Sequence record: MT682706.1
Direction: 5' to 3' (one strand)
Length of the DNA: 43,757 nucleotides
Source of the DNA: Escherichia phage vB_EcoS_FP
Under the pieces are notes generated by a model. That model was given only the letters and a program-made list of their open reading frames with translations. It did not search any database and was not told the origin of the DNA. Positions 13,412 to 40,481 of the stretch are shown piece by piece. Position 1 is the stretch's first letter. Every line of letters starts with the position of its first letter. The position numbers and the translations under genes are program-made.

Positions 13412-14068
13412 ATGGCTCATTTATCAAATGGCACGCAGGTCTTCGTAGAAGGATCTCGCGGAACTCCAATTGACGTAACTGCAATCTCTAACGCAGATAA
13501 ACCAGTTTTAACCGTATCTAGCGCATCTGGCCTGGCTAAGGGTGACTACCTTCTGTTTACCGCCTCCAGCTCAACCCTACTTAGCGACAAACATGTGCGA
13601 GTAACTGAAGTTTCTGGCACTTCGGTAACAGTTGAAGGTATTGATACCTCCAATACCACTAAGTTCCCTGCTGGCTTAACTGGTGAGGTTGTTAAGATTG
13701 ACTCATGGTTCGAAGTCCCGTGTGTTCAGGACGTATCTACTGACGGCGGCGAACAGCAGTTTGTTAACTTCCAGTGTCTTTCTGATGACCGCGAGCAGCA
13801 GATTCCGACTTATAAGTCTGCGGTAACAAACACCTTCACCTTTGCTCACGAGTACACCAACCCGGTCTATCCGGTTCTGCGTAAGTACGATGAGTCTGGC
13901 CAGGTTGTTGCAATTCGTCTGTTCGTACCTCGCGCTCAGGAAATGCGTTTGCAGTCCGGCACTATCGCTTTCAACGACACCCCTACCATTGGTGTTAACG
14001 AAATCGAAACGGTATCCATCGCTGTATCCATTCGTGGTCGTCTGTCCTCTGTGGCAGCTGAAGTTTAA
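13412..14068 (+). CDS. major tail protein
   Basis: 218 aa; strong RBS; followed by terminator; position upstream of chaperones and tape measure. Confidence 0.7.
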   Translation: MAHLSNGTQVFVEGSRGTPIDVTAISNADKPVLTVSSASGLAKGDYLLFTASSSTLLSDKHVRVTEVSGTSVTVEGIDTSNTTKFPAGLTGEVVKIDSWFEVPCVQDVSTDGGEQQFVNFQCLSDDREQQIPTYKSAVTNTFTFAHEYTNPVYPVLRKYDESGQVVAIRLFVPRAQEMRLQSGTIAFNDTPTIGVNEIETVSIAVSIRGRLSSVAAEV

Positions 14069-14073
14069 AACAC

Positions 14074-14098
14074 AAACCCTCTTCGGAGGGTTTTTTAT
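14074..14098 (+). terminator. intrinsic terminator
   Basis: AACCCTCTTCGGAGGGTTTTTTATT. Confidence 0.75.
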
Positions 14099-14100
14099 TG

Positions 14101-14160
14101 CACAGCACTTTTTGATAAAGCACTTATTCAGTTTTGCTGTATAGTTAACTCATCGAAACG
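14101..14160 (+). promoter_or_regulatory. phage-specific promoter-like module (variant)
   Basis: CAGCACTTTTTGATAAA, 22 nt, TATAGTTAACTCATCGAAACGA. Confidence 0.5.
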
Positions 14161-14178
14161 AAATGAGAGACTAAAGAA

Positions 14179-14427
14179 ATGAATAACGTTAAAAACATCA
14201 TCAAGCTTGCTGCGGTTCTGGTCGCTTTTTATGCAGCAGTTCAGATTGTCAACCCAACTGGCGAGGTTGATGCAAATAGCAAGGCAAACAAATATACTGT
14301 TGAGTTTGCTAAAGCTGAGCGAGCATGTCAGAATCTTGTGGGTAGCAAGGTTGACCAAATCATGAAATATGGAAAAGAGGTTTGTAAGGACTCAGCCGCT
14401 AAGATTGCAAAAGAAAACACTAAGTAA
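14179..14427 (+). CDS. small secreted/membrane-anchored protein (82 aa), moron-like insert in tail module
   Basis: N-terminal hydrophobic segment IIKLAAVLVAFYAAVQIV; own promoter module and upstream terminator. Confidence 0.55.
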   Translation: MNNVKNIIKLAAVLVAFYAAVQIVNPTGEVDANSKANKYTVEFAKAERACQNLVGSKVDQIMKYGKEVCKDSAAKIAKENTK

Positions 14428-14465
14428 TAGAATACATACTCACAAACAATAAGAGGATTAACAAA

Positions 14466-14780
14466 ATGGCAAAGTTCAAACTTTCACTGGCAGCACTCCC
14501 TGACTTTAAGTTGCCTGTAAAATTCAAGCTGGCTAACGACCAGGATGTAGAGGTTATCTTTACAGTTAAGCACAAGAAAACATCTGAGTTGCAGGAATTG
14601 CTTAGCAGGGAGGATTTAAGCACAAAAGAACTTATTATGGCAATTGCCTCTGATTGGGATTTGGAGGAGGAATACAACGAAGATAACGTTAATGAGTTCT
14701 CCGACCTGTTCCCAGCCTCAACCGTTGCACTTACTACCGCTTATATGCAGGCACTGGCAGGCCAGCGGGCAAAAAACTAA
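14466..14780 (+). CDS. tail assembly chaperone (G-like)
   Basis: Position upstream of tape measure; ends in slippery A_AAA_AAC. Confidence 0.7.
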   Translation: MAKFKLSLAALPDFKLPVKFKLANDQDVEVIFTVKHKKTSELQELLSREDLSTKELIMAIASDWDLEEEYNEDNVNEFSDLFPASTVALTTAYMQALAGQRAKN

Positions 14781-15100
14781 AGAGGGCGGTGTATCTACAG
14801 TACCAGTCAGAGCCAACTGATGCCGAACTGGAAGCTATTGGGATGCGCCGCTCTGATTACGAAGACGAAGAGCCTGAAGTTTTACACTTCGACGACAACA
14901 TGATGAAGGCTTGGGACATTTATTGTTCAATGGCCACGCAATGGAGGGTTGGAGCTAACGGAGCTACAGGGTTAGATTACAACGTGCTAAATTTCCTCTT
15001 TAGAGTGTATAATGTCTCAGAAGAAGAATTGGTGCTCAGTGATTTACGCATCCTTGAAGCTAAGGCTCTCGAGATGATGGATAATCTGAGAAAAAAATAA
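14466..15100 (+). CDS. tail assembly chaperone GT-like fusion via programmed -1 frameshift at A_AAA_AAC (14771-14777)
   Basis: Slippery heptamer in frame with the G codons; -1 frame continues as ...KKLKRAVYLQYQSEPTD into ORF ending 15100. Confidence 0.55.
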
Positions 15101-15120
15101 CCCGCTTCGGCGGGTTTTCT
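15100..15120 (+). terminator. intrinsic terminator-like hairpin
   Basis: ACCCGCTTCGGCGGGTTTT. Confidence 0.45.
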
Positions 15121-15135
15121 ATTATGGAGGCTTAG

Positions 15136-18114
15136 ATGGCAACAAATGAATTAGCCGGAATCACACTAGCCGTAGACGTCTCGCAGGTAGACAGGGGAAC
15201 GCAATCCCTACAAAAGTTCAGGCAGGCAAACCAGCAGGCTGCTTCCGGTATTAGTGAGTTCGTCAACGCTGAACAGGTCGCTAAAAACCAGGCTAGAGAT
15301 ACCGCTCGCGCACTGGCTGAACAGCAAGCATCTTTAGCTAAATTGCAAACAGCTATTGATCCAACTGCGGCAAAGTTCCGAAAGCTGCAAGAGGCTGCTG
15401 TAGGTCTTGACAAGGCTTTCGCGGCTGGAGTAGTTCCTGATGAGGAGTTTTTCCGCTTAGGTGAAGCCCTTGAAACGCAGAGCGCAAAACTTGCTCGTTC
15501 ACGTGCGGCGCTAACTGAAGAGGGAAGGGCGGCAGCTCAAGCCGCAAAGGATAAGGCAAAGGCAAAGGCTGAAGCTGATAGGTTCATTGCGTCACTTGAG
15601 CGACAGGCTCAAGCGGCAACATTGACGCGTGAGGAGTACTTAAAATTACAGGCTGCCCAGCTTGGGGTGAGCTCTCAGGCAGCACCTATTATTGACAGAA
15701 TCGCCGATGCATCACAGAAGGCAAACACCCAGCTAATTGCTCAGAGTAAGGCTTTTCAGAAATCAGGATTAAGCGCAGGTCAATACAAGAACGCAATTTC
15801 TCAGCTGCCAGCGCAGATTACTGATATTGGCACGTCTCTTGCTGGCGGCATTCCGATTTGGCTTATTGCAATTCAGCAGGGTGGGCAGATCAAGGATGCA
15901 TTTGGCGGTATTGGTAACACCTTTAGATTCGCGCTTGCTGCTTTAAACCCATTCAACGTAGCAGTTGGGGTTCTCGGTGGCGCTCTTATTGCTTTAGGTG
16001 TCGGTGCAGCTCAGGCTGAAAGTGAATTCAGAGCATTAAACTCTGCCATTGCATTCTCCAACAACTCCACAATCGCATCAATCTCGCAGGTTAGAGATTT
16101 GGTTAGCTCCGTTTCTGATGCTACTGGTGCAACCAGAGGACTTGTGACTAGCATCGCAACAAGCCTTATTGAGCAAGGGAACCTTACGCTGACGCAGATT
16201 GACAAGATTACCAAATCAACCGCCAGATGGGCGCAGTTGACAGGTAAGGATGCGAAGGAGATTACTGGTTACTATAACCAGATTGCGAGCGACCCAATTC
16301 AAGGACTTGCTGATTTAGACAAGAGGTTTAACTTCCTTACACAGGGGCAGTTAACAACAATTGAAAGATTGAGAGAGACTAGGGGTGAGGTTGAAGCTGT
16401 TACCGCCGCGATTGATATTTTCAGCAAGTCACAGGAAGCTAACCTTAACGACATAGCTGCGCAGTTAACCCCACTTGAGTTGGCCTGGAATGATTTTAGA
16501 AAGTACATCTCTGATATCTGGGATGCAATTAGTCGTAGAACGGTTGGGGCGCTGAACTTGTTTGTTGACGTAATAGCAGGAACAATTGAGCAAATCAGGG
16601 TCTTCCTTAACAGCGGTGACGTGCTGATTGGTGAATTCGTAATTAGCTCAATTCAGGCGTTGCAGAACATACCTGGTCTTGATGGTGTCGGTGATGACGT
16701 TATCAAGGCTCAGCGTGAGATTATCGATGCAGCTAAGAAGAATAACCTTGAACTAGAAAAGTCTATCAGGGAGCGAGACGCTAGAATAAGAAAAGGAGAA
16801 ATGGGTTACGTTACTAGCAGAGAAAATCAGAATACCAATGAGCAGCCAGGCACGGATGAGGAGTTTGCAAAGAGGAAGAAGGCGCTTCAGGATGAGCTTG
16901 ACGCGATTAAGAAGAACAGGAAAGAGGAAAATGGGAGGGTTAAGGAGCAAAGGGATTTAACAATAGGTTATGAATCTGGCGTTCTGGCACTTCAGGCTCA
17001 ACTCAAAGTTCTTCAGGAAAACAGGGATATTGGCGCAGTAATAAGCAACGAGCGCAAGCAGTACCTTCAGGAGGAAGCAAATTTCAGGATTCTTGAGCAG
17101 AGGCAAATTGATGGATCAATAACCAAAGAGCAGGGCAGGCTTCTTATTGAGAAAGATAAGGTTCTTCAACTGGCCAGACAGAAGGCCGAATTGGGTGACC
17201 AGATTGTTTTGCAGGAACGAGCCAATAAGTTGGCTGAAGTTAACCGCAAAAAGATTCTTCAGATTAACAATGAAGCGAGTAACATTGACTTGGGTGCTGG
17301 GTTATCATCTCGTGAGCAGCAAAGAGCTAAGGAGATTCAGGCTCTTAAGTCCAATCAGGTCAATGCTGGTGGCTCTCTTGATGATGTTGATTTTCAGCGG
17401 TTGCTGGAAGCAAGAAAGGAATACTACAAGCAGGAGGATAATCTTAGGTCAGACTGGCAATCAGGTGTAACATCCACTCTCGCCGACTTGACAGAGAAAT
17501 ATACAGACTACAATCAGATAGCTAAGGATTTAACCGTTGCGGCATTCGACGGGATCACAGAGCAAATCACCAACCTTGTAACCACTGGTGAGACCAATTT
17601 TAGGGAGTTCACATCAAACATCCTCAAAATGATTGCGAAGATTGCAACTCAGTTACTTTTGGTTAAGGCCATCGAATCAACATTGACTAGCTTTGGTGGT
17701 GGTGGAGGTAATGCGTTTGGCTCTTTTGCGTCTGCTATAGGTTTCTCCGGTGGCGGTTACACTGGTGACGGCGGTAAGTACCAGCCAGCAGGCACTGTGC
17801 ACCGTGGTGAGTTTGTATTCACAAAAGAAGCTACAAGCCGAATCGGTGTGAAAAACCTTTACGCGCTAATGAAGGGGTATGCAAACGGCGGCGCTGTAGG
17901 TGGTCCATCTGGTTATGCAAATGGCGGCTTGGTTTCTGGTGGTGCGGATGTTAATGTTAGCGGCATCACCGTTAACGTGAGCTCTGGTGTTGGTAGCGAC
18001 CCAGAGCAAGCTAAGGCGCTGCAAAGCGGAGTCAAGGCTATCGTAGCGGAAGAGATTGCGCAGTCTTTCCAGCAGGGCGGCAGGGCGTATCAGTACCTGC
18101 GCGGATTCAACTAA
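15136..18114 (+). CDS. tail tape measure protein
   Basis: 992 aa; coiled-coil-rich N-terminal half; Gly-rich C-terminal region; position. Confidence 0.9.
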   Translation: MATNELAGITLAVDVSQVDRGTQSLQKFRQANQQAASGISEFVNAEQVAKNQARDTARALAEQQASLAKLQTAIDPTAAKFRKLQEAAVGLDKAFAAGVVPDEEFFRLGEALETQSAKLARSRAALTEEGRAAAQAAKDKAKAKAEADRFIASLERQAQAATLTREEYLKLQAAQLGVSSQAAPIIDRIADASQKANTQLIAQSKAFQKSGLSAGQYKNAISQLPAQITDIGTSLAGGIPIWLIAIQQGGQIKDAFGGIGNTFRFALAALNPFNVAVGVLGGALIALGVGAAQAESEFRALNSAIAFSNNSTIASISQVRDLVSSVSDATGATRGLVTSIATSLIEQGNLTLTQIDKITKSTARWAQLTGKDAKEITGYYNQIASDPIQGLADLDKRFNFLTQGQLTTIERLRETRGEVEAVTAAIDIFSKSQEANLNDIAAQLTPLELAWNDFRKYISDIWDAISRRTVGALNLFVDVIAGTIEQIRVFLNSGDVLIGEFVISSIQALQNIPGLDGVGDDVIKAQREIIDAAKKNNLELEKSIRERDARIRKGEMGYVTSRENQNTNEQPGTDEEFAKRKKALQDELDAIKKNRKEENGRVKEQRDLTIGYESGVLALQAQLKVLQENRDIGAVISNERKQYLQEEANFRILEQRQIDGSITKEQGRLLIEKDKVLQLARQKAELGDQIVLQERANKLAEVNRKKILQINNEASNIDLGAGLSSREQQRAKEIQALKSNQVNAGGSLDDVDFQRLLEARKEYYKQEDNLRSDWQSGVTSTLADLTEKYTDYNQIAKDLTVAAFDGITEQITNLVTTGETNFREFTSNILKMIAKIATQLLLVKAIESTLTSFGGGGGNAFGSFASAIGFSGGGYTGDGGKYQPAGTVHRGEFVFTKEATSRIGVKNLYALMKGYANGGAVGGPSGYANGGLVSGGADVNVSGITVNVSSGVGSDPEQAKALQSGVKAIVAEEIAQSFQQGGRAYQYLRGFN

Positions 18115-24092: not shown

Positions 24093-25028
24093 TTAATACA
24101 TATCAGGAAGGTAAGGAAGTGGCATTGATATTGTTACGTCAGGCCTATTTCCTATCTCGTATCTAACAATCCTTGATCCCGTGCCAGATCTAACATACCC
24201 ATTGCTCATTACGATTCCTTTGTTTCTCAACTCCTTATATGCTCGTATTGCCCTTGTGTTAAACCCACATCTGAGTATTGGGAAGTAAGATTCGCCAATG
24301 TACTGATTGCTACCTGATAGGTTTATGAATCCAGAAACAACCAATGGCCTAGTTACGGTCGACAGCGTACAAACACCATTTGAATTAAATATGTTTAATC
24401 CAGGACCTGGCGTTGGTGCTACCATCTGAAATATAAGAAGGTCCATAGTTACACTTCCTGGAGTGTCACCAGTATCTTCCGTATTTATGTTTGTGCATAC
24501 CAGCTGGTTACTACCATTGTATTCAACTGATACGCCGGAGTTGTTCCACTTTCCAAACGGTATACCATAAATTGGCAGTGTGTATGTGTTGGTGAAAGAT
24601 ATTCTCTGAGCAAACTTGCATACTAATAGCCTGTCAGTGGTGGTTATAGAAGTAAAGTCAGTACTGTCAGTAACGTAAATACCCTGGCCTGTAGATGCTC
24701 TTAGTACCTCAACAACAGTACCAGAAAATTGAGTTATACGGTCAGAATATCCATTCTCATAACCAATCGATATTGTTCCGCTTGATGCTGTTGATGAGAA
24801 TCCATTTATGTAGTAAATCTCAACACCTCTATCAAGCTCAAATGAGTATGCGCCATTGTTAGGTATAAGGAACCTTGACGCTCCTTCATTACCCTGAATT
24901 GAAAAATTTTTGCTAAATCCACCACTGGAGACGTTGAAGTTACCAGCGAAGTTTAAAGCACGCATCCCTGCGGTTATTGTCATTGGCTTTCTTCCGTCAT
25001 TGAGGTCTATATAAATACCTTGAGTCAT
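24093..25028 (-). CDS. putative receptor-binding protein (311 aa)
   Basis: Minus-strand gene convergent with J; start ATG overlaps lipoprotein stop (TAATG) with AAGGAG RBS; Ser/Thr/Gly/Asn-rich. Confidence 0.5.
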   Translation of the reverse strand: MTQGIYIDLNDGRKPMTITAGMRALNFAGNFNVSSGGFSKNFSIQGNEGASRFLIPNNGAYSFELDRGVEIYYINGFSSTASSGTISIGYENGYSDRITQFSGTVVEVLRASTGQGIYVTDSTDFTSITTTDRLLVCKFAQRISFTNTYTLPIYGIPFGKWNNSGVSVEYNGSNQLVCTNINTEDTGDTPGSVTMDLLIFQMVAPTPGPGLNIFNSNGVCTLSTVTRPLVVSGFINLSGSNQYIGESYFPILRCGFNTRAIRAYKELRNKGIVMSNGYVRSGTGSRIVRYEIGNRPDVTISMPLPYLPDMY

Positions 25029-25258
25029 TAATTCCACTCCTTAGAACCATAATCACGAACAGATCCGCTGGAGCCTTTAATACCATCGTAGCGAATGTCA
25101 ATTTCACCAGCCGAAACTACTACGCCACCTTTCCATTTAGCTACGCACACGCCGTTTGAGGACGCTGCACACCAACCATCCGGGCGGGGAGCTGATGAAC
25201 AACCAACCGTCATGATTACTGCCGCTGCGATGATTGGTAATTTGATTAAGTTAGTCAT
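25028..25258 (-). CDS. lipoprotein, candidate superinfection-exclusion (Llp/Cor-like)
   Basis: Signal peptide plus lipobox MTVGCSS; 76 aa; adjacent to putative receptor-binding protein gene; driven by phage promoter module. Confidence 0.6.
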
Positions 25259-25282: not shown

Positions 25283-25344
25283 TCGTTTCGATGAACTAAT
25301 AATACAACCGTCGGTGCGGAATGTCTTTAGCTATTCGTGCTATT
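25283..25344 (-). promoter_or_regulatory. phage-specific promoter-like module driving lipoprotein/RBP operon
   Basis: Minus strand: AATAGCACGAATAGCTAAAG ... TATTATTAGTTCATCGAAACGAAACG. Confidence 0.5.
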
Positions 25345-25720
25345 GTATACGCGTAACCAATGTAACTCGATGTATACAATCTCATCCGCGAAAAATGATA
25401 TACGCGCTGTTACGGCAATTTACGCATTGGTTACATTAAAATATCTATATATATCAACCTTTTACTCTTATTATTATTATTATATATATTACTGTGTATA
25501 TCATGTAACTACTTCTATAGAGTGTTCCGGTTATAATTTTAATATCATGTGGATTTATACAGTATTGCGTGGCAGCTATACCAATGCACCCCCTGCAAGA
25601 AACGGTATACACGATATACACGATGGTTACATTGAGCTATAGCTGGGCTGAGATGCCAAAAAGCGTAACTAGTACCAATACCTACACGGAATTACAGTAA
25701 TTCGCACGTAAACTTAATAA
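25345..25720. repeat. AT-rich non-coding control region B (homologous to region A); (TTA)n microsatellite; TACGCNNTGGTTACAT iteron-like sites
   Basis: No ORF with coding signal; shared blocks with 247-540. Confidence 0.7.
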
Positions 25721-32559: not shown

Positions 32560-32612
32560 AAGGCACTATACATAATGCACAGTGCCATTGTTTATCAATT
32601 CGTGCTATTTCC
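32560..32612 (-). promoter_or_regulatory. phage-specific promoter-like module (minus strand)
   Basis: Minus strand: AAATAGCACGAATTGATAAA, 22 nt, TATAGTGCC. Confidence 0.5.
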
Positions 32613-33087
32613 CTTGCTCTTTAGCTTTTCGTGCTGCCTCGTTAGCGGCCTTAATCTTGCGCCATGATCGACACTCTGGCTTCGTGGCTAACTCAGCCTC
32701 AGTGACCACACGCAGCATGTGACGTTTTTTGCAACGTAGTGTAAGTGGCTTTCCGTTGCCATCGAATTGCAAATCTGGTCGGCAGAATGTAGCGCGAAAG
32801 CCTTCTCCATTTCGTTTGTAGTAGTTGTGCGACAACTGAGCACCGCGTGCAGAAATCATACCACGCTTAAACCATTCTTCCACGGCCTGTGGTGTTACCT
32901 TTAATTTCTTTGCCATATTTGCCTTTGTGCCGAAGAAATCAAGAACAATTTCCAGCCGCGCACGTAAACCCGCCCTTACCTCATCTTTCAAAACGTAGTA
33001 ACCTGAAGGTCGTTTTCGCTGCTTTTTATCTTCAGTGCGGATGGTTCCGTTATTGCCGTTAATGGTTCTCTTGTCGACTGTATTCAT
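32605..33087 (-). CDS. HTH DNA-binding protein (Cro/YdaS-like), basic
   Basis: HTH block AKKLKVTPQAVEEWFKRGMISARGA; ATG 33087 with GAGGTAATAAG RBS. Confidence 0.55.
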   Translation of the reverse strand: MNTVDKRTINGNNGTIRTEDKKQRKRPSGYYVLKDEVRAGLRARLEIVLDFFGTKANMAKKLKVTPQAVEEWFKRGMISARGAQLSHNYYKRNGEGFRATFCRPDLQFDGNGKPLTLRCKKRHMLRVVTEAELATKPECRSWRKIKAANEAARKAKEQGK

Positions 33088-33098
33088 CTTATTACCTC

Positions 33099-33146
33099 GA
33101 TAGCATTTTTTGTTAAAAGTCATCCTGATTTGATGGTAATATTGTA
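33099..33146 (+). promoter_or_regulatory. phage-specific promoter-like module (variant) for helicase operon
   Basis: GATAGCATTTTTTGTTAAAAG, 22 nt, TAATATTGTAC; divergent from HTH gene. Confidence 0.45.
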
Positions 33147-38482: not shown

Positions 38483-39039
38483 AAATGACTAAATTATTTA
38501 TCCTTAACGGACCGGCTGGAGTTGGCAAGGACACTATCGCAGATGTTATGCTCGAGTTGGGTGTTGTTGATGGGAAAGTTTCATTCAAGTCACCAATGTT
38601 CGATGTAGCCAGGGGGATGCTATCAAAGGATGAATTTGATTGGTTTATTGAGAACTACAACAACCGAGACGAGAAAGAAAAGCATCAAGAGATACTTGGC
38701 GGTAAAAGCATTCGAGAATTTATGATTTGGATTAGCGAGTCTGTAATGAAGCCAGTCTTTGGTGATTATGTTTTCGGTAAAAGGCTAGCCCAGTCACTTG
38801 GTGATGGTTGCTACATTTGCGCTGACGGTGGGTTTGCTAGCGAGATTAAGCCACTGATCGACACTGGTGTTGAGGTCACGTTAATCAGATTGCATAGGGC
38901 AGGGTACAAATTTGATGGCGATAGTCGCTCATACATTCATGGGGTGTGCGCAAGAGAAATTGATGTTCGTGTTGTTGATGGTGATATTGATGGAACATCA
39001 GCATTGGTAAGGCACGTAATAAATAGCACGAATTGCTAA
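38479..39039 (+). CDS. P-loop kinase (dNMP kinase-like)
   Basis: Walker A GPAGVGKDT; ATG 38479 with ACGGAG RBS; runs through a promoter motif, ending NSTNC. Confidence 0.6.
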   Translation: MKMTKLFILNGPAGVGKDTIADVMLELGVVDGKVSFKSPMFDVARGMLSKDEFDWFIENYNNRDEKEKHQEILGGKSIREFMIWISESVMKPVFGDYVFGKRLAQSLGDGCYICADGGFASEIKPLIDTGVEVTLIRLHRAGYKFDGDSRSYIHGVCAREIDVRVVDGDIDGTSALVRHVINSTNC

Positions 39040-39072
39040 AGATAATAATAAAAACTTGGTTATAGTTAACAC
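39021..39072 (+). promoter_or_regulatory. phage-specific promoter-like module
   Basis: AATAGCACGAATTGCTAAAG, 22 nt, TATAGTTAACACATCGAAACGAGATG. Confidence 0.55.
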
Positions 39073-39083
39073 ATCGAAACGAG

Positions 39084-39284
39084 ATGAACCAAGCGAGGAA
39101 AAACAAAATGACTAAAATGATTTACTGCACCAAGAACAACTCCAAGACCCTGCCATTTACTGTTAACCAGCCGTACAACGCAGAGTACCAGGGCGATGGA
39201 TACTACAAGATTTACGGAGACGATATGACGCACATCTTAGCGCCGATTGATGGTTCGTTAGTTGAATTTATTATCGCTGACTAG
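39084..39284 (+). CDS. hypothetical protein (66 aa)
   Basis: RBS GAGGAAAAAC; ORF track. Confidence 0.55.
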   Translation: MNQARKNKMTKMIYCTKNNSKTLPFTVNQPYNAEYQGDGYYKIYGDDMTHILAPIDGSLVEFIIAD

Positions 39285-39308
39285 CGCAGAAAAAACATAG
39301 CTTTACAA

Positions 39309-39338
39309 GCGGGGGGCCTTTTGGCTCCCCTTTTTTAT
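39309..39338 (+). terminator. intrinsic terminator
   Basis: GCGGGGGGCCTTTTGGCTCCCC plus T-run. Confidence 0.65.
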
Positions 39339-39414
39339 GCTTCTTTTCCGAACGGTGCTAATGTATCATTCTTTTATTAACTTAATCATTAACAAATACA
39401 TAAAGGTGGATCAC

Positions 39415-39630
39415 ATGAGGGAAGTAATCAACGCCGCTACAGCATCAACTGGCGGGGCTGCGGTAACTGGCGCAGCAACTGGTCAAATGACTATAGCAAT
39501 AATCAGCCTTATCGCTCTAATCATTTTTGGAGTTTGGGGTGCTTACTGGAAGTATAAGGATAGTCAAGCCATCAGGCGGGCGCTTGAAGCTGGAGACTTG
39601 AAAACAGCAATCAATATAAGGAACAAATAA
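39415..39630 (+). CDS. holin (candidate)
   Basis: 71 aa with one strongly hydrophobic segment MTIAIISLIALIIFGVWGAYW; immediately upstream of endolysin; RBS AAAGGTGG. Confidence 0.55.
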   Translation: MREVINAATASTGGAAVTGAATGQMTIAIISLIALIIFGVWGAYWKYKDSQAIRRALEAGDLKTAINIRNK

Positions 39631-40116
39631 ATGAAGCAGAAGCTGCTAATTAGCGCGGCTACGGCTGCGGCAATATACATCGCAGCGCCGCTTATTGAGC
39701 TCGTTGAGGGTGTGGAGAACAAGCCTTACATGGACATTGCTGGAATCCCTACAGTTTGTTCAGGTATTACTGGACCTGACGTTGTTTGGGGTAAAACTTA
39801 CAGTAACAGGGAGTGCCGGAACCTACTGGAGAAGCACATCCAGATTCATGCTAAGTATGTTCAGGATGCGGTTACCTACCCAATTGCACGGCAGACAAGG
39901 GCAGCGCTAATCAGCTTTAGCTACAACGTTGGTGGTCATGCCATGAAGAACTCAACGGCAATTAGACTTATCAATCAGGGTAAAGTGGAGCAGGGTTGTA
40001 AGGCTCTTGGGATGTGGAATAAAGCTACCGTTAACGGCAAAAAGGTTATTGTTAAGGGTTTGGTTAATCGCAGGAACGAGGAGGTTAAGCTATGCTTAAG
40101 TGGATTGCAGCGTTAG
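39631..40116 (+). CDS. SAR endolysin (lysozyme, P21 R-like)
   Basis: N-terminal SAR-like hydrophobic segment; blocks KPYMDIAGIPTVCSGIT and SFSYNVGGHA recalled to resemble phage P21 R lysozyme. Confidence 0.85.
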   Translation: MKQKLLISAATAAAIYIAAPLIELVEGVENKPYMDIAGIPTVCSGITGPDVVWGKTYSNRECRNLLEKHIQIHAKYVQDAVTYPIARQTRAALISFSYNVGGHAMKNSTAIRLINQGKVEQGCKALGMWNKATVNGKKVIVKGLVNRRNEEVKLCLSGLQR

Positions 40117-40481
40117 TAATGTGCGTGGCCTTATCTGGATGCTCAGCAACATCTGCGCTGACTGGTTTGATTGGCAGCAATCCAGAAATTAGCGCACAGG
40201 CTGGAGCAGAAAACAACAAGGTTGGTGTTGGGTTAACTAACAAGGTTGACTCCAGTAACTCCAGCGATGCTTCCTTTAAGGATTCTAGCGTAGGCTCTCT
40301 GGATAGCTCGAGCGGAAAAAAGACTGCTGACAATTCGATTAAGGCCTCAACAATCACTGCCGAAAAGATTGAAATTACCAATAACGAATCATCATCGCTT
40401 CCGTGGGTTGGAACAGGAGCTATGGGTCTACTGGTTTTGATTCTCCTGACCGTAATCTTAAGACGTAAAAAAGCCTCCTAA
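40092..40481 (+). CDS. unimolecular spanin (T1 gp11-like)
   Basis: Lipobox LSGC at N-terminus plus C-terminal transmembrane segment LLVLILLTVIL; overlaps endolysin end. Confidence 0.6.
   Translation: MLKWIAALVMCVALSGCSATSALTGLIGSNPEISAQAGAENNKVGVGLTNKVDSSNSSDASFKDSSVGSLDSSSGKKTADNSIKASTITAEKIEITNNESSSLPWVGTGAMGLLVLILLTVILRRKKAS

Follow-up and report, generated by a model that had tools for sequence, protein, structure and literature searches.

What does a short gene do in the middle of the tail gene block of Escherichia phage vB_EcoS_FP, and how did it come to lie there? The window, by which we mean the whole stretch of DNA analysed (43,757 nucleotides (nt), record MT682706.1), comes by megablast from a T1-like (Rtp-like) coliphage, a member of the subfamily Braunvirinae close to the genera Guelphvirus and Veterinaerplatzvirus, with phage BEK6 as its closest match (95% identity). 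The gene in question is an open reading frame (ORF) of 82 amino acids (aa), confirmed at 14179..14427 on the plus strand with an ATG start. An earlier note, made from the letters of this DNA, had placed the ORF between the major tail protein gene, closed by a strong terminator, and the tail chaperone genes, and had read it as a moron-like gene for a secreted or membrane protein; the parts of this arrangement are all present in their positions. We consider it very likely that the locus is an accessory, moron-like cassette for an exported protein, housed in a swap-prone slot of the Braunvirinae. The upstream neighbour of the ORF is the major tail protein gene (13412..14068; phrog_584, E 3e-88), followed by these elements:

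14074..14099, plus strand: intrinsic terminator of the major tail protein gene, AAACCCTC-TTCG-GAGGGTTT then TTTTAT, with an 8-base-pair (bp) stem containing 4 G-C pairs
14102..14119, plus strand: Drexlerviridae direct-repeat promoter element ACAGCACTTTTTGATAAA (consensus ATAGCACnnnTTGnTAAA), recognised by repeat count and fixed geometry
14140..14145, plus strand: putative -10 hexamer TATAGT, exactly 20 nt past the repeat
14146..14178, plus strand: leader TAACTCATCGAAACGAAATGAGAGACTAAAGAA, with a mini-ORF and a GAGAG Shine-Dalgarno-like element, conserved before both types of cargo gene found in the slot
14179..14427, plus strand: 82-aa ORF
14466..15100, plus strand: tail assembly chaperone genes (G/GT-like), in one transcription unit with the 82-aa ORF

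Comparison of the same position in related phages gives the first part of the answer. Only about 70-100 nt, with no gene in them, separate the major tail protein gene from the chaperone genes in Rogunavirinae (Sadiya, AHP24), in Klebsiella phage K50 and in Tempevirinae. The two genes are adjacent in BubbaBully, and in T1 the slot is empty, gp41 being directly followed by gp40 according to the notes of the Rtp record. It is occupied in every Braunvirinae genome checked. The 82-aa gene is thus an extra gene between two genes that are adjacent in related phages, which is one trait in the Juhala/Hendrix definition of a moron, and the swap-prone slot is specific to the subfamily Braunvirinae.

Alignment of the occupied slots reveals a common cassette with exchangeable content. 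The terminator, which forms the upstream edge of the variable slot, is identical across all Braunvirinae aligned, and the repeat, -10 hexamer, leader and ribosome-binding site are likewise common to all; the cargo differs. In most Braunvirinae the cargo is a member of the 82-aa family. In five phages (Rtp, AugustePiccard, RobRod40, MM01 and the much diverged TR1) it is a lipoprotein of the rtp34 family, 126-128 aa long, with the lipobox LLAGC, as in rtp34 itself, or LTGC. The two families share the slot, terminator, repeat promoter, leader and ribosome-binding site, a predicted export (the rtp34 proteins, too, have two further conserved cysteines) and an annotation as hypothetical proteins. 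They are otherwise unrelated: the rtp34 proteins are lipoproteins, paired with a short allele of the tape measure gene (see below), and are probably located in the outer membrane because their lipobox carries Asn at +2. A literature search on rtp34 found nothing. The leader pattern matched 6 loci in a scan of IMG/VR; known isolates account for 5 of these, and a further cargo type was not among them. All cargo proteins of the slot are predicted to be targeted to the envelope. The base composition of the cassette departs modestly from its flanks towards A+T, with a G+C content of 37.1% (40.6% in the ORF) against 48.7% in the major tail protein gene, 44.1% in the chaperone gene and 44.1% in the window.

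An unannotated 46-aa ORF, MILIGMLTAFFYYATGLTFWVSLGAAIGTYFVSALLALIVRALRNR, was seen in phages CY1 (about positions 2340-2480 of locus L008) and Rao1 (about positions 1335-1475 of locus L019). With the repeat promoter on one side and the 82-aa homologue on the other, it encodes a peptide with two predicted membrane helices (phrog_16572, E 2e-5), so that these phages are predicted to carry two small membrane proteins in the slot.

How is the cassette expressed? The window contains ATAGCACnnnTTGCTAAA 15 times, against a chance expectation of 0.19; the cassette copy, ACAGCACTTTTTGATAAA, has 2 mismatches to the consensus (0-1 in the relatives' copies). The copies are found at 1704, 2215, 3150, 5318, 14102, 27213, 27790, 31549, 33100, 35596 and 39023 on the plus strand and at 25326, 32591, 42476 and 42910 on the minus strand. 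A hexamer TATAGT, TATAAT or TATATT occurs exactly 20 nt past the repeat in 11-12 of the 15, with a start codon some 26-35 nt further, and the cassette copy matches this spacing exactly; a leader CATCGAAACGAAA is common to six copies. The repeat has been published for phages TLS, T1, Rtp and Rogue1 as a 21-nt element, aaATAGCACnnnTTGnTAAAA (PMC11447400), and the 77 nt from the start of the cassette repeat to the 82-aa ATG compare with about 76 nt before start codons reported for TLS and its companions. It contains a partial palindrome, TAGCA-N5-TGCTA, centred at about -42 from the presumed transcription start. Such a geometry suits a 'stoperator' less well than a class II activator site or an upstream promoter element in fixed position, the constant placement of the -10 hexamer favouring the upstream promoter element. 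The literature search found no transcript-start data for Drexlerviridae.

The promoter module is real and phage-specific. Its promoter activity is predicted from this pattern and would probably serve the chaperone genes too. The repeats of the window precede transcription units of all kinds, among them small early ORFs, the terminase/structural operon, the receptor-binding locus, and the recombination, replication and lysis genes; the module is therefore the general promoter type of the phage and not a mark of add-on genes. Of the claim that the gene has its own phage-specific promoter, the repeat and -10 hexamer with standard geometry, located within the indel that separates the window from Rogunavirinae, can be retained; the module is shared by the whole genome and is non-canonical with respect to sigma-70.

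A divergent pair of repeats flanks the gene of a helix-turn-helix regulator (32605..33123, minus strand), 97% identical to rtp52, and this protein is a candidate for binding the repeat. The 82-aa start has the spacing GAGAG(N8-10)ATG, similar to that at other promoters and genes of this phage. Within the leader, a 3-codon mini-ORF, ATGAGAGACTAA (ATG AGA GAC TAA; 14163-14174), ends 4 nt before the 82-aa start codon and is conserved before both cargo types (window, EC3a, ACG-M12, ES, Rtp). The mini-ORF may serve translational coupling or regulation, or may merely belong to the ribosome-binding region.

The terminator at the upstream edge folds with -11.5 kcal/mol (z = -4.8), a value reached by 0 of 200 shuffled sequences. 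A scan of positions 13900-14600 against Rfam gave sub-threshold matches only, driven by this hairpin. The chaperone genes 3' of the 82-aa ORF comprise two ORFs, 14466..14780 and 14789..15100 (phrog_569, 17368, 680); a frameshifted product is annotated for them in the record of OzMSK. The stretch from the 82-aa ORF to the chaperone gene (14427-14466) contains no terminator; the first one is found past the chaperone genes at 15099-15116, before the tape measure gene (15136..18114, 992 aa). Since a terminator of its own is absent, the 82-aa ORF is taken to be co-transcribed with the chaperone genes, and the unit is autonomous only in part.

Could the ORF then be a passenger, a near-neutral filler or a selfish hitchhiker that profits from a site of good expression, behind a promoter that is there to have the chaperone and tape-measure genes transcribed again past the major tail protein terminator? 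One point for such a reading is that the corresponding site of Rogunavirinae holds an extended -10 promoter, TGTTATAAT, with neither repeat nor ORF; others are the lack of a terminator after the ORF and the rapid evolution of the carboxyl-terminal domain (79% aa identity versus 93% for the flanking major tail protein). We nevertheless find it improbable. The ratio of nonsynonymous to synonymous substitution rates (dN/dS) is 0.06-0.33 over the ten pairs compared, of which the most distant are close to synonymous saturation, the frame is intact in 81 of 81 phage records, the cysteines and the N-terminal motif are invariant, and some gene for an envelope protein is kept here in every Braunvirinae genome checked. 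The 82-aa ORF is a real gene under purifying selection. An antisense ORF (14128..14358, minus strand) was considered and is unsupported, the substitution pattern fitting the plus-strand frame.

The family is confined to phages. Its members are 82-83 aa long everywhere but in the ACG-M12 group (88 aa), and in dozens of records the gene is annotated "hypothetical protein". The protein matches phrog_22925, a family without assigned function, over residues 1-82 of 82 (E 3.3e-53). A word-indexed search retrieved only 38 protein clusters from metagenomes, all in phage-sized contexts, and a profile search of 1.84 billion representatives returned only the family itself as a single cluster; neither search gave prophage or bacterial homologues. 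Pfam has no match below E = 0.09 and none to YebO, and PADLOC has no match. The AlphaFold2 model, of low confidence (predicted local distance difference test score (pLDDT) 64), consists of an N-terminal helix and a helical hairpin, and Foldseek gave it no match with E < 2 in the PDB.

The protein has the architecture of an exported polypeptide, with these parts:

residues 1-9: basic n-region
residues 10-24: hydrophobic core
residues 25-32: possible c-region
residues 33-82: basic helical hairpin

The N-terminal hydrophobic segment proposed by the earlier note is readily found: lysines K5 and K9 are followed by the 15-residue, alanine-rich core L10-V24, LAAVLVAFYAAVQIV, with a mean Kyte-Doolittle hydropathy of 2.39 (the core of a second clade is LAAALGAFYLAIQIV). 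Residues 25-32, NPTGEVDA, offer a possible signal peptidase site VDA|N, which reads ATA|N in the second clade, and A32 and N33 are nearly invariant in the family. The features of a Sec signal are thus all present, namely a basic n-region, a hydrophobic h-region and small residues at -3/-1. A lipobox is absent, there being no cysteine before residue 50. Residues 33-82 are basic (isoelectric point 9.4), and the invariance of C50 and C69 points to a probable disulfide between them in the periplasm. In phage MSK the gene after the major tail protein, MSK_000011, scored positive in SignalP 4.1 and TMHMM (PMC8421802). Its product is identified as the homologue, 96% identical to the 82-aa protein, by gene order, MSK_000010 being the major tail protein and MSK_000014 the tape measure. 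Sec export is thus predicted both by the features of the protein and by published predictions for a near-identical one, with a signal that may be cleaved or retained.

What would an exported protein made with the tail chaperones do? We suppose that the repeat-type promoter restarts transcription past the major tail protein terminator, giving a new transcript with the 82-aa ORF first and the tail chaperone genes after it. The basic N-terminus and the 15-residue alanine-rich core would target the product to the Sec pathway, and a basic hairpin of about 50 residues with two cysteines would end up in the periplasm, either released by cleavage at VDA|N or, with the signal retained, tethered to the inner membrane. 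There the protein would most likely alter the envelope of the infected cell and be part neither of the virion nor of its assembly. Superinfecting phages might then be excluded past receptor binding by a disturbance of the incoming tape-measure/DNA conduit in the periplasm or at the inner membrane. We put forward this post-receptor superinfection exclusion tentatively, as the mechanism that we favour, though it may well prove wrong.

The proposal places the block after receptor binding on account of the distribution of the cargo. Carriers of the 82-aa cargo include the LptD phages JeanPiccard and OzMSK as well as IME253, a FepA phage. Lipoprotein cargo is found in the LptD phage AugustePiccard and in Rtp, whose receptor-binding loci are about 93% identical to each other; one paper counts Rtp among the verified LptD phages. 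The cargo class does not follow the terminal receptor type, and therefore a mask of the receptor in the manner of Cor or Llp was rejected. The window has a locus of that kind elsewhere, at 24093..25258 on the minus strand, which encodes a receptor-binding protein (314 aa, 79% identical to Rtp44) and an exclusion lipoprotein behind its own repeat promoter at 25326 (minus strand). The lipoprotein (25028-25258, minus strand) is a 76-aa homologue of Rtp45 with 84% identity and the lipobox TVGC (TVGCSS).

The cargo class does match another gene. Between the window and Rtp there are only two unrelated islands, the cargo and the centre of the tape measure gene (about 15958-17065), and the 1.5 kb between them are 81-99% identical. 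The second island is:

15958..17065, plus strand: central segment of the tape measure gene, second mosaic island, whose allele matches the cargo class of the slot

No genome checked departs from the match. Lipoprotein cargo and the short Rtp-type centre (at least 89% identity; all other records are below 50%) occur in exactly the same five phages, and the long allele (at least 90% identity) is found in 75 records, with the corresponding 82-aa cargo in about 74-75. It is seen in both chaperone backgrounds, one type being that of the window, Rtp, AugustePiccard, RobRod40 and MM01 and the other that of CY1 and TR1. The assignment of RobRod40 to the other chaperone type was examined and rejected: the region after its G gene is 95% identical to that of the window and differs in the annotated start only.

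The tape measure centre has at least 3 alleles in Braunvirinae, a long one (proteins of 990-992 aa, in two versions about 58% identical) and a short one (920-923 aa); the long and short centres are unrelated, and both ends of the gene are 75-100% identical. With a 70-aa difference in the tape measure, the tail length should change.

A tape measure protein meets periplasmic proteins only on injection, and the match between cargo and allele therefore fits a post-receptor blocker of the incoming phage. The tape measure centre is a possible functional partner of the cargo. In its most specific form, which we regard as doubtful, the slot would encode allele-matched blockers of DNA injection, with the 82-aa hairpin directed at the long allele and the outer-membrane lipoprotein rtp34 at the short one. 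That each cargo would recognise the central domain of its tape measure as it crosses the periplasm is a speculative step, and one that we hold to be unlikely.

The position among tail genes and the match to the tape-measure allele would also be expected of a tail-assembly or virion component that acts with the tape measure protein. We judge this very improbable. The gene is not a structural component conserved in all relatives, being absent from subfamilies with homologous tails and replaced by the lipoprotein in 5 phages; a Sec-type N-terminus would remove the protein from the cytoplasm, where tails assemble; and the virion proteins published for phage MSK do not include the homologue (PMC8421802). 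The paper on ACG-M12 contains no virion proteomics.

The protein may instead be exported for another late task, such as lysis timing in the manner of the T4 RI antiholin, the sparing of progeny from cell debris, or the countering of an envelope-associated defence. A hydrophobic core that is weak and rich in alanine in both clades (LAAVLVAFYAAVQIV, LAAALGAFYLAIQIV) and presumably resembles signal-anchor-release domains is in keeping with this, as are the transcript common with late tail genes and the fact that every alternative cargo is an envelope protein. Each of the tasks meets a difficulty of its own. The lysis cassette is 25 kb away, at about 39023-40481 behind its own repeat promoter, and no similarity of fold or sequence to RI or another solved protein was found. 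Protection from debris is normally receptor-specific, a role already covered here by the Rtp45-like lipoprotein. An anti-defence role lacks a PADLOC match and any other pointer. Taken together, such a late task seems rather unlikely to us.

Several observations weigh against an exported exclusion factor and against the details given above. As a stable membrane helix the hydrophobic core would be marginal. The first 28 residues evolve with a dN of 0.08 versus 0.58 for the rest (window versus ES, dS above 1); such N-terminal conservation is unusual for a disposable signal peptide and hints at a separate role for this segment. In the pLDDT 64 model, C50 and C69 are not mirrored across the hairpin. 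A consensus sigma-70 scan does not call the cassette promoter, because the spacer from TTGATA, within the repeat, to TATAGT is 22 nt, and those who described the repeat leave its function open as a stoperator, an enhancer site or an UP element (PMC11447400). The link to the tape measure amounts to about two independent contrasts and could be explained by historical linkage. The ACG-M12 cargo is 52% identical to that of the window with a tape-measure centre at 93%, and the TR1 lipoprotein is 31% identical to rtp34 with centres at 95%, so that tight co-evolution of cargo and tape measure fits poorly. All relatives are virulent Drexlerviridae; the phage being virulent, the classical rationale of a moron, expression from a repressed prophage, probably does not apply, and the benefit of exclusion would be short-lived. 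The moron-like exported protein of the earlier note is thus upheld by the insertion slot, its own G+C content and the Sec features, with caveats concerning the terminator, the general promoter type and virulence.

Known systems offer partial precedents. HK97 gp15 is reportedly the first described moron, acting in superinfection exclusion (work ascribed to Juhala, 2000, and Cumby, 2012). It is a small inner-membrane protein of the tail operon that blocks DNA entry in dependence on the tail of the incoming phage (PMC3594210). Like the 82-aa gene, it encodes a small envelope protein, is an add-on in the tail block near the chaperone and tape-measure genes, and is missing in close relatives; its tail-dependent action after receptor binding finds a parallel in the match of the 82-aa cargo class to the tape-measure allele. 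The two have no sequence similarity. Gp15 belongs to a temperate phage and is made in the prophage state, from a gene with both a promoter and a terminator to itself, whereas the 82-aa gene belongs to a virulent phage, lacks its own terminator and has its slot upstream and not downstream of the chaperones.

Cor, Llp and Rtp45 are comparable as small envelope proteins made by virulent T1- and T5-like siphophages during infection that block further entry. They differ in being lipoproteins encoded beside the receptor-binding gene and varying with the receptor; the 82-aa protein lacks a lipobox, and LptD and FepA phages alike carry members of its family. Imm, Sp (spackle) and RI of phage T4 are 83-97 aa long, have an N-terminal membrane or signal segment, are located in the periplasm or inner membrane and are made in lytic infection. 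Their size and features resemble those of the 82-aa protein with no match in sequence or fold, the likeness being one of functional analogy only.

A further promoter-like element overlaps the end of the gene:

14405..14433, plus strand: sigma-70-like match TTGCAA-17-TAGAAT across the 3' end of the 82-aa ORF, shortly before the chaperone gene

It agrees at 9 of 12 positions, and such matches are no more frequent here than in shuffled sequences. The GenBank record of EC3a annotates a promoter at the equivalent place. The element could be a secondary promoter of the chaperones, independent of the cassette promoter; the evidence is weak.

Three other observations concern the surroundings. In the N-terminal third of the major tail protein gene (13445-13745) local identity to Rtp drops to 68-80%, compared with 90-96% in the rest of the gene, suggesting a minor patch of mosaicism in the tail tube gene; dN/dS of this gene versus 12210I is high (0.39). 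Records MG065688.1 (Campylobacter phage A110b) and PP134917.1 (Pseudomonas phage PsgS01F; 44,679 bp, equal to an E. coli phage record) share 92-94% identity with Braunvirinae phages of E. coli across the region, and probably the hosts named for them are wrong or the phages are contaminants. Direct repeats, 77-78% identical and at a constant offset of about 25.1 kb, pair positions 263-363 with 25407-25507 (101 nt) and 478-546 with 25603-25671 (69 nt), the first member of each pair being at the window's left end and the second in the intergenic DNA upstream of the receptor-binding locus.

Accessory envelope genes in phage tail operons and the repeat promoter type are known already. Neither a common cassette with alternative, predicted envelope cargo nor its match to the tape-measure allele was found described in the searchable papers. 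If the 82-aa ORF were a mere passenger, it would be an ordinary small hypothetical gene in a variable slot. To our knowledge, the closure of infected cells by T1- and Rtp-like phages is known only at the level of the receptor, through Cor, Llp and Rtp45. Allele-matched blockers, if real, would constitute a second, receptor-independent layer of exclusion beside the Rtp45-type receptor mask. T1-like and Rtp-like phages are notorious contaminants of laboratories and fermentations as well as candidates for phage therapy, and production strains might gain resistance by expressing the 82-aa gene instead of through editing of the essential LptD. An envelope factor acting independently of the receptor would, if confirmed, provide an entry point into the poorly understood periplasmic step of DNA delivery by siphophages, especially if its class tracks the tape-measure allele.

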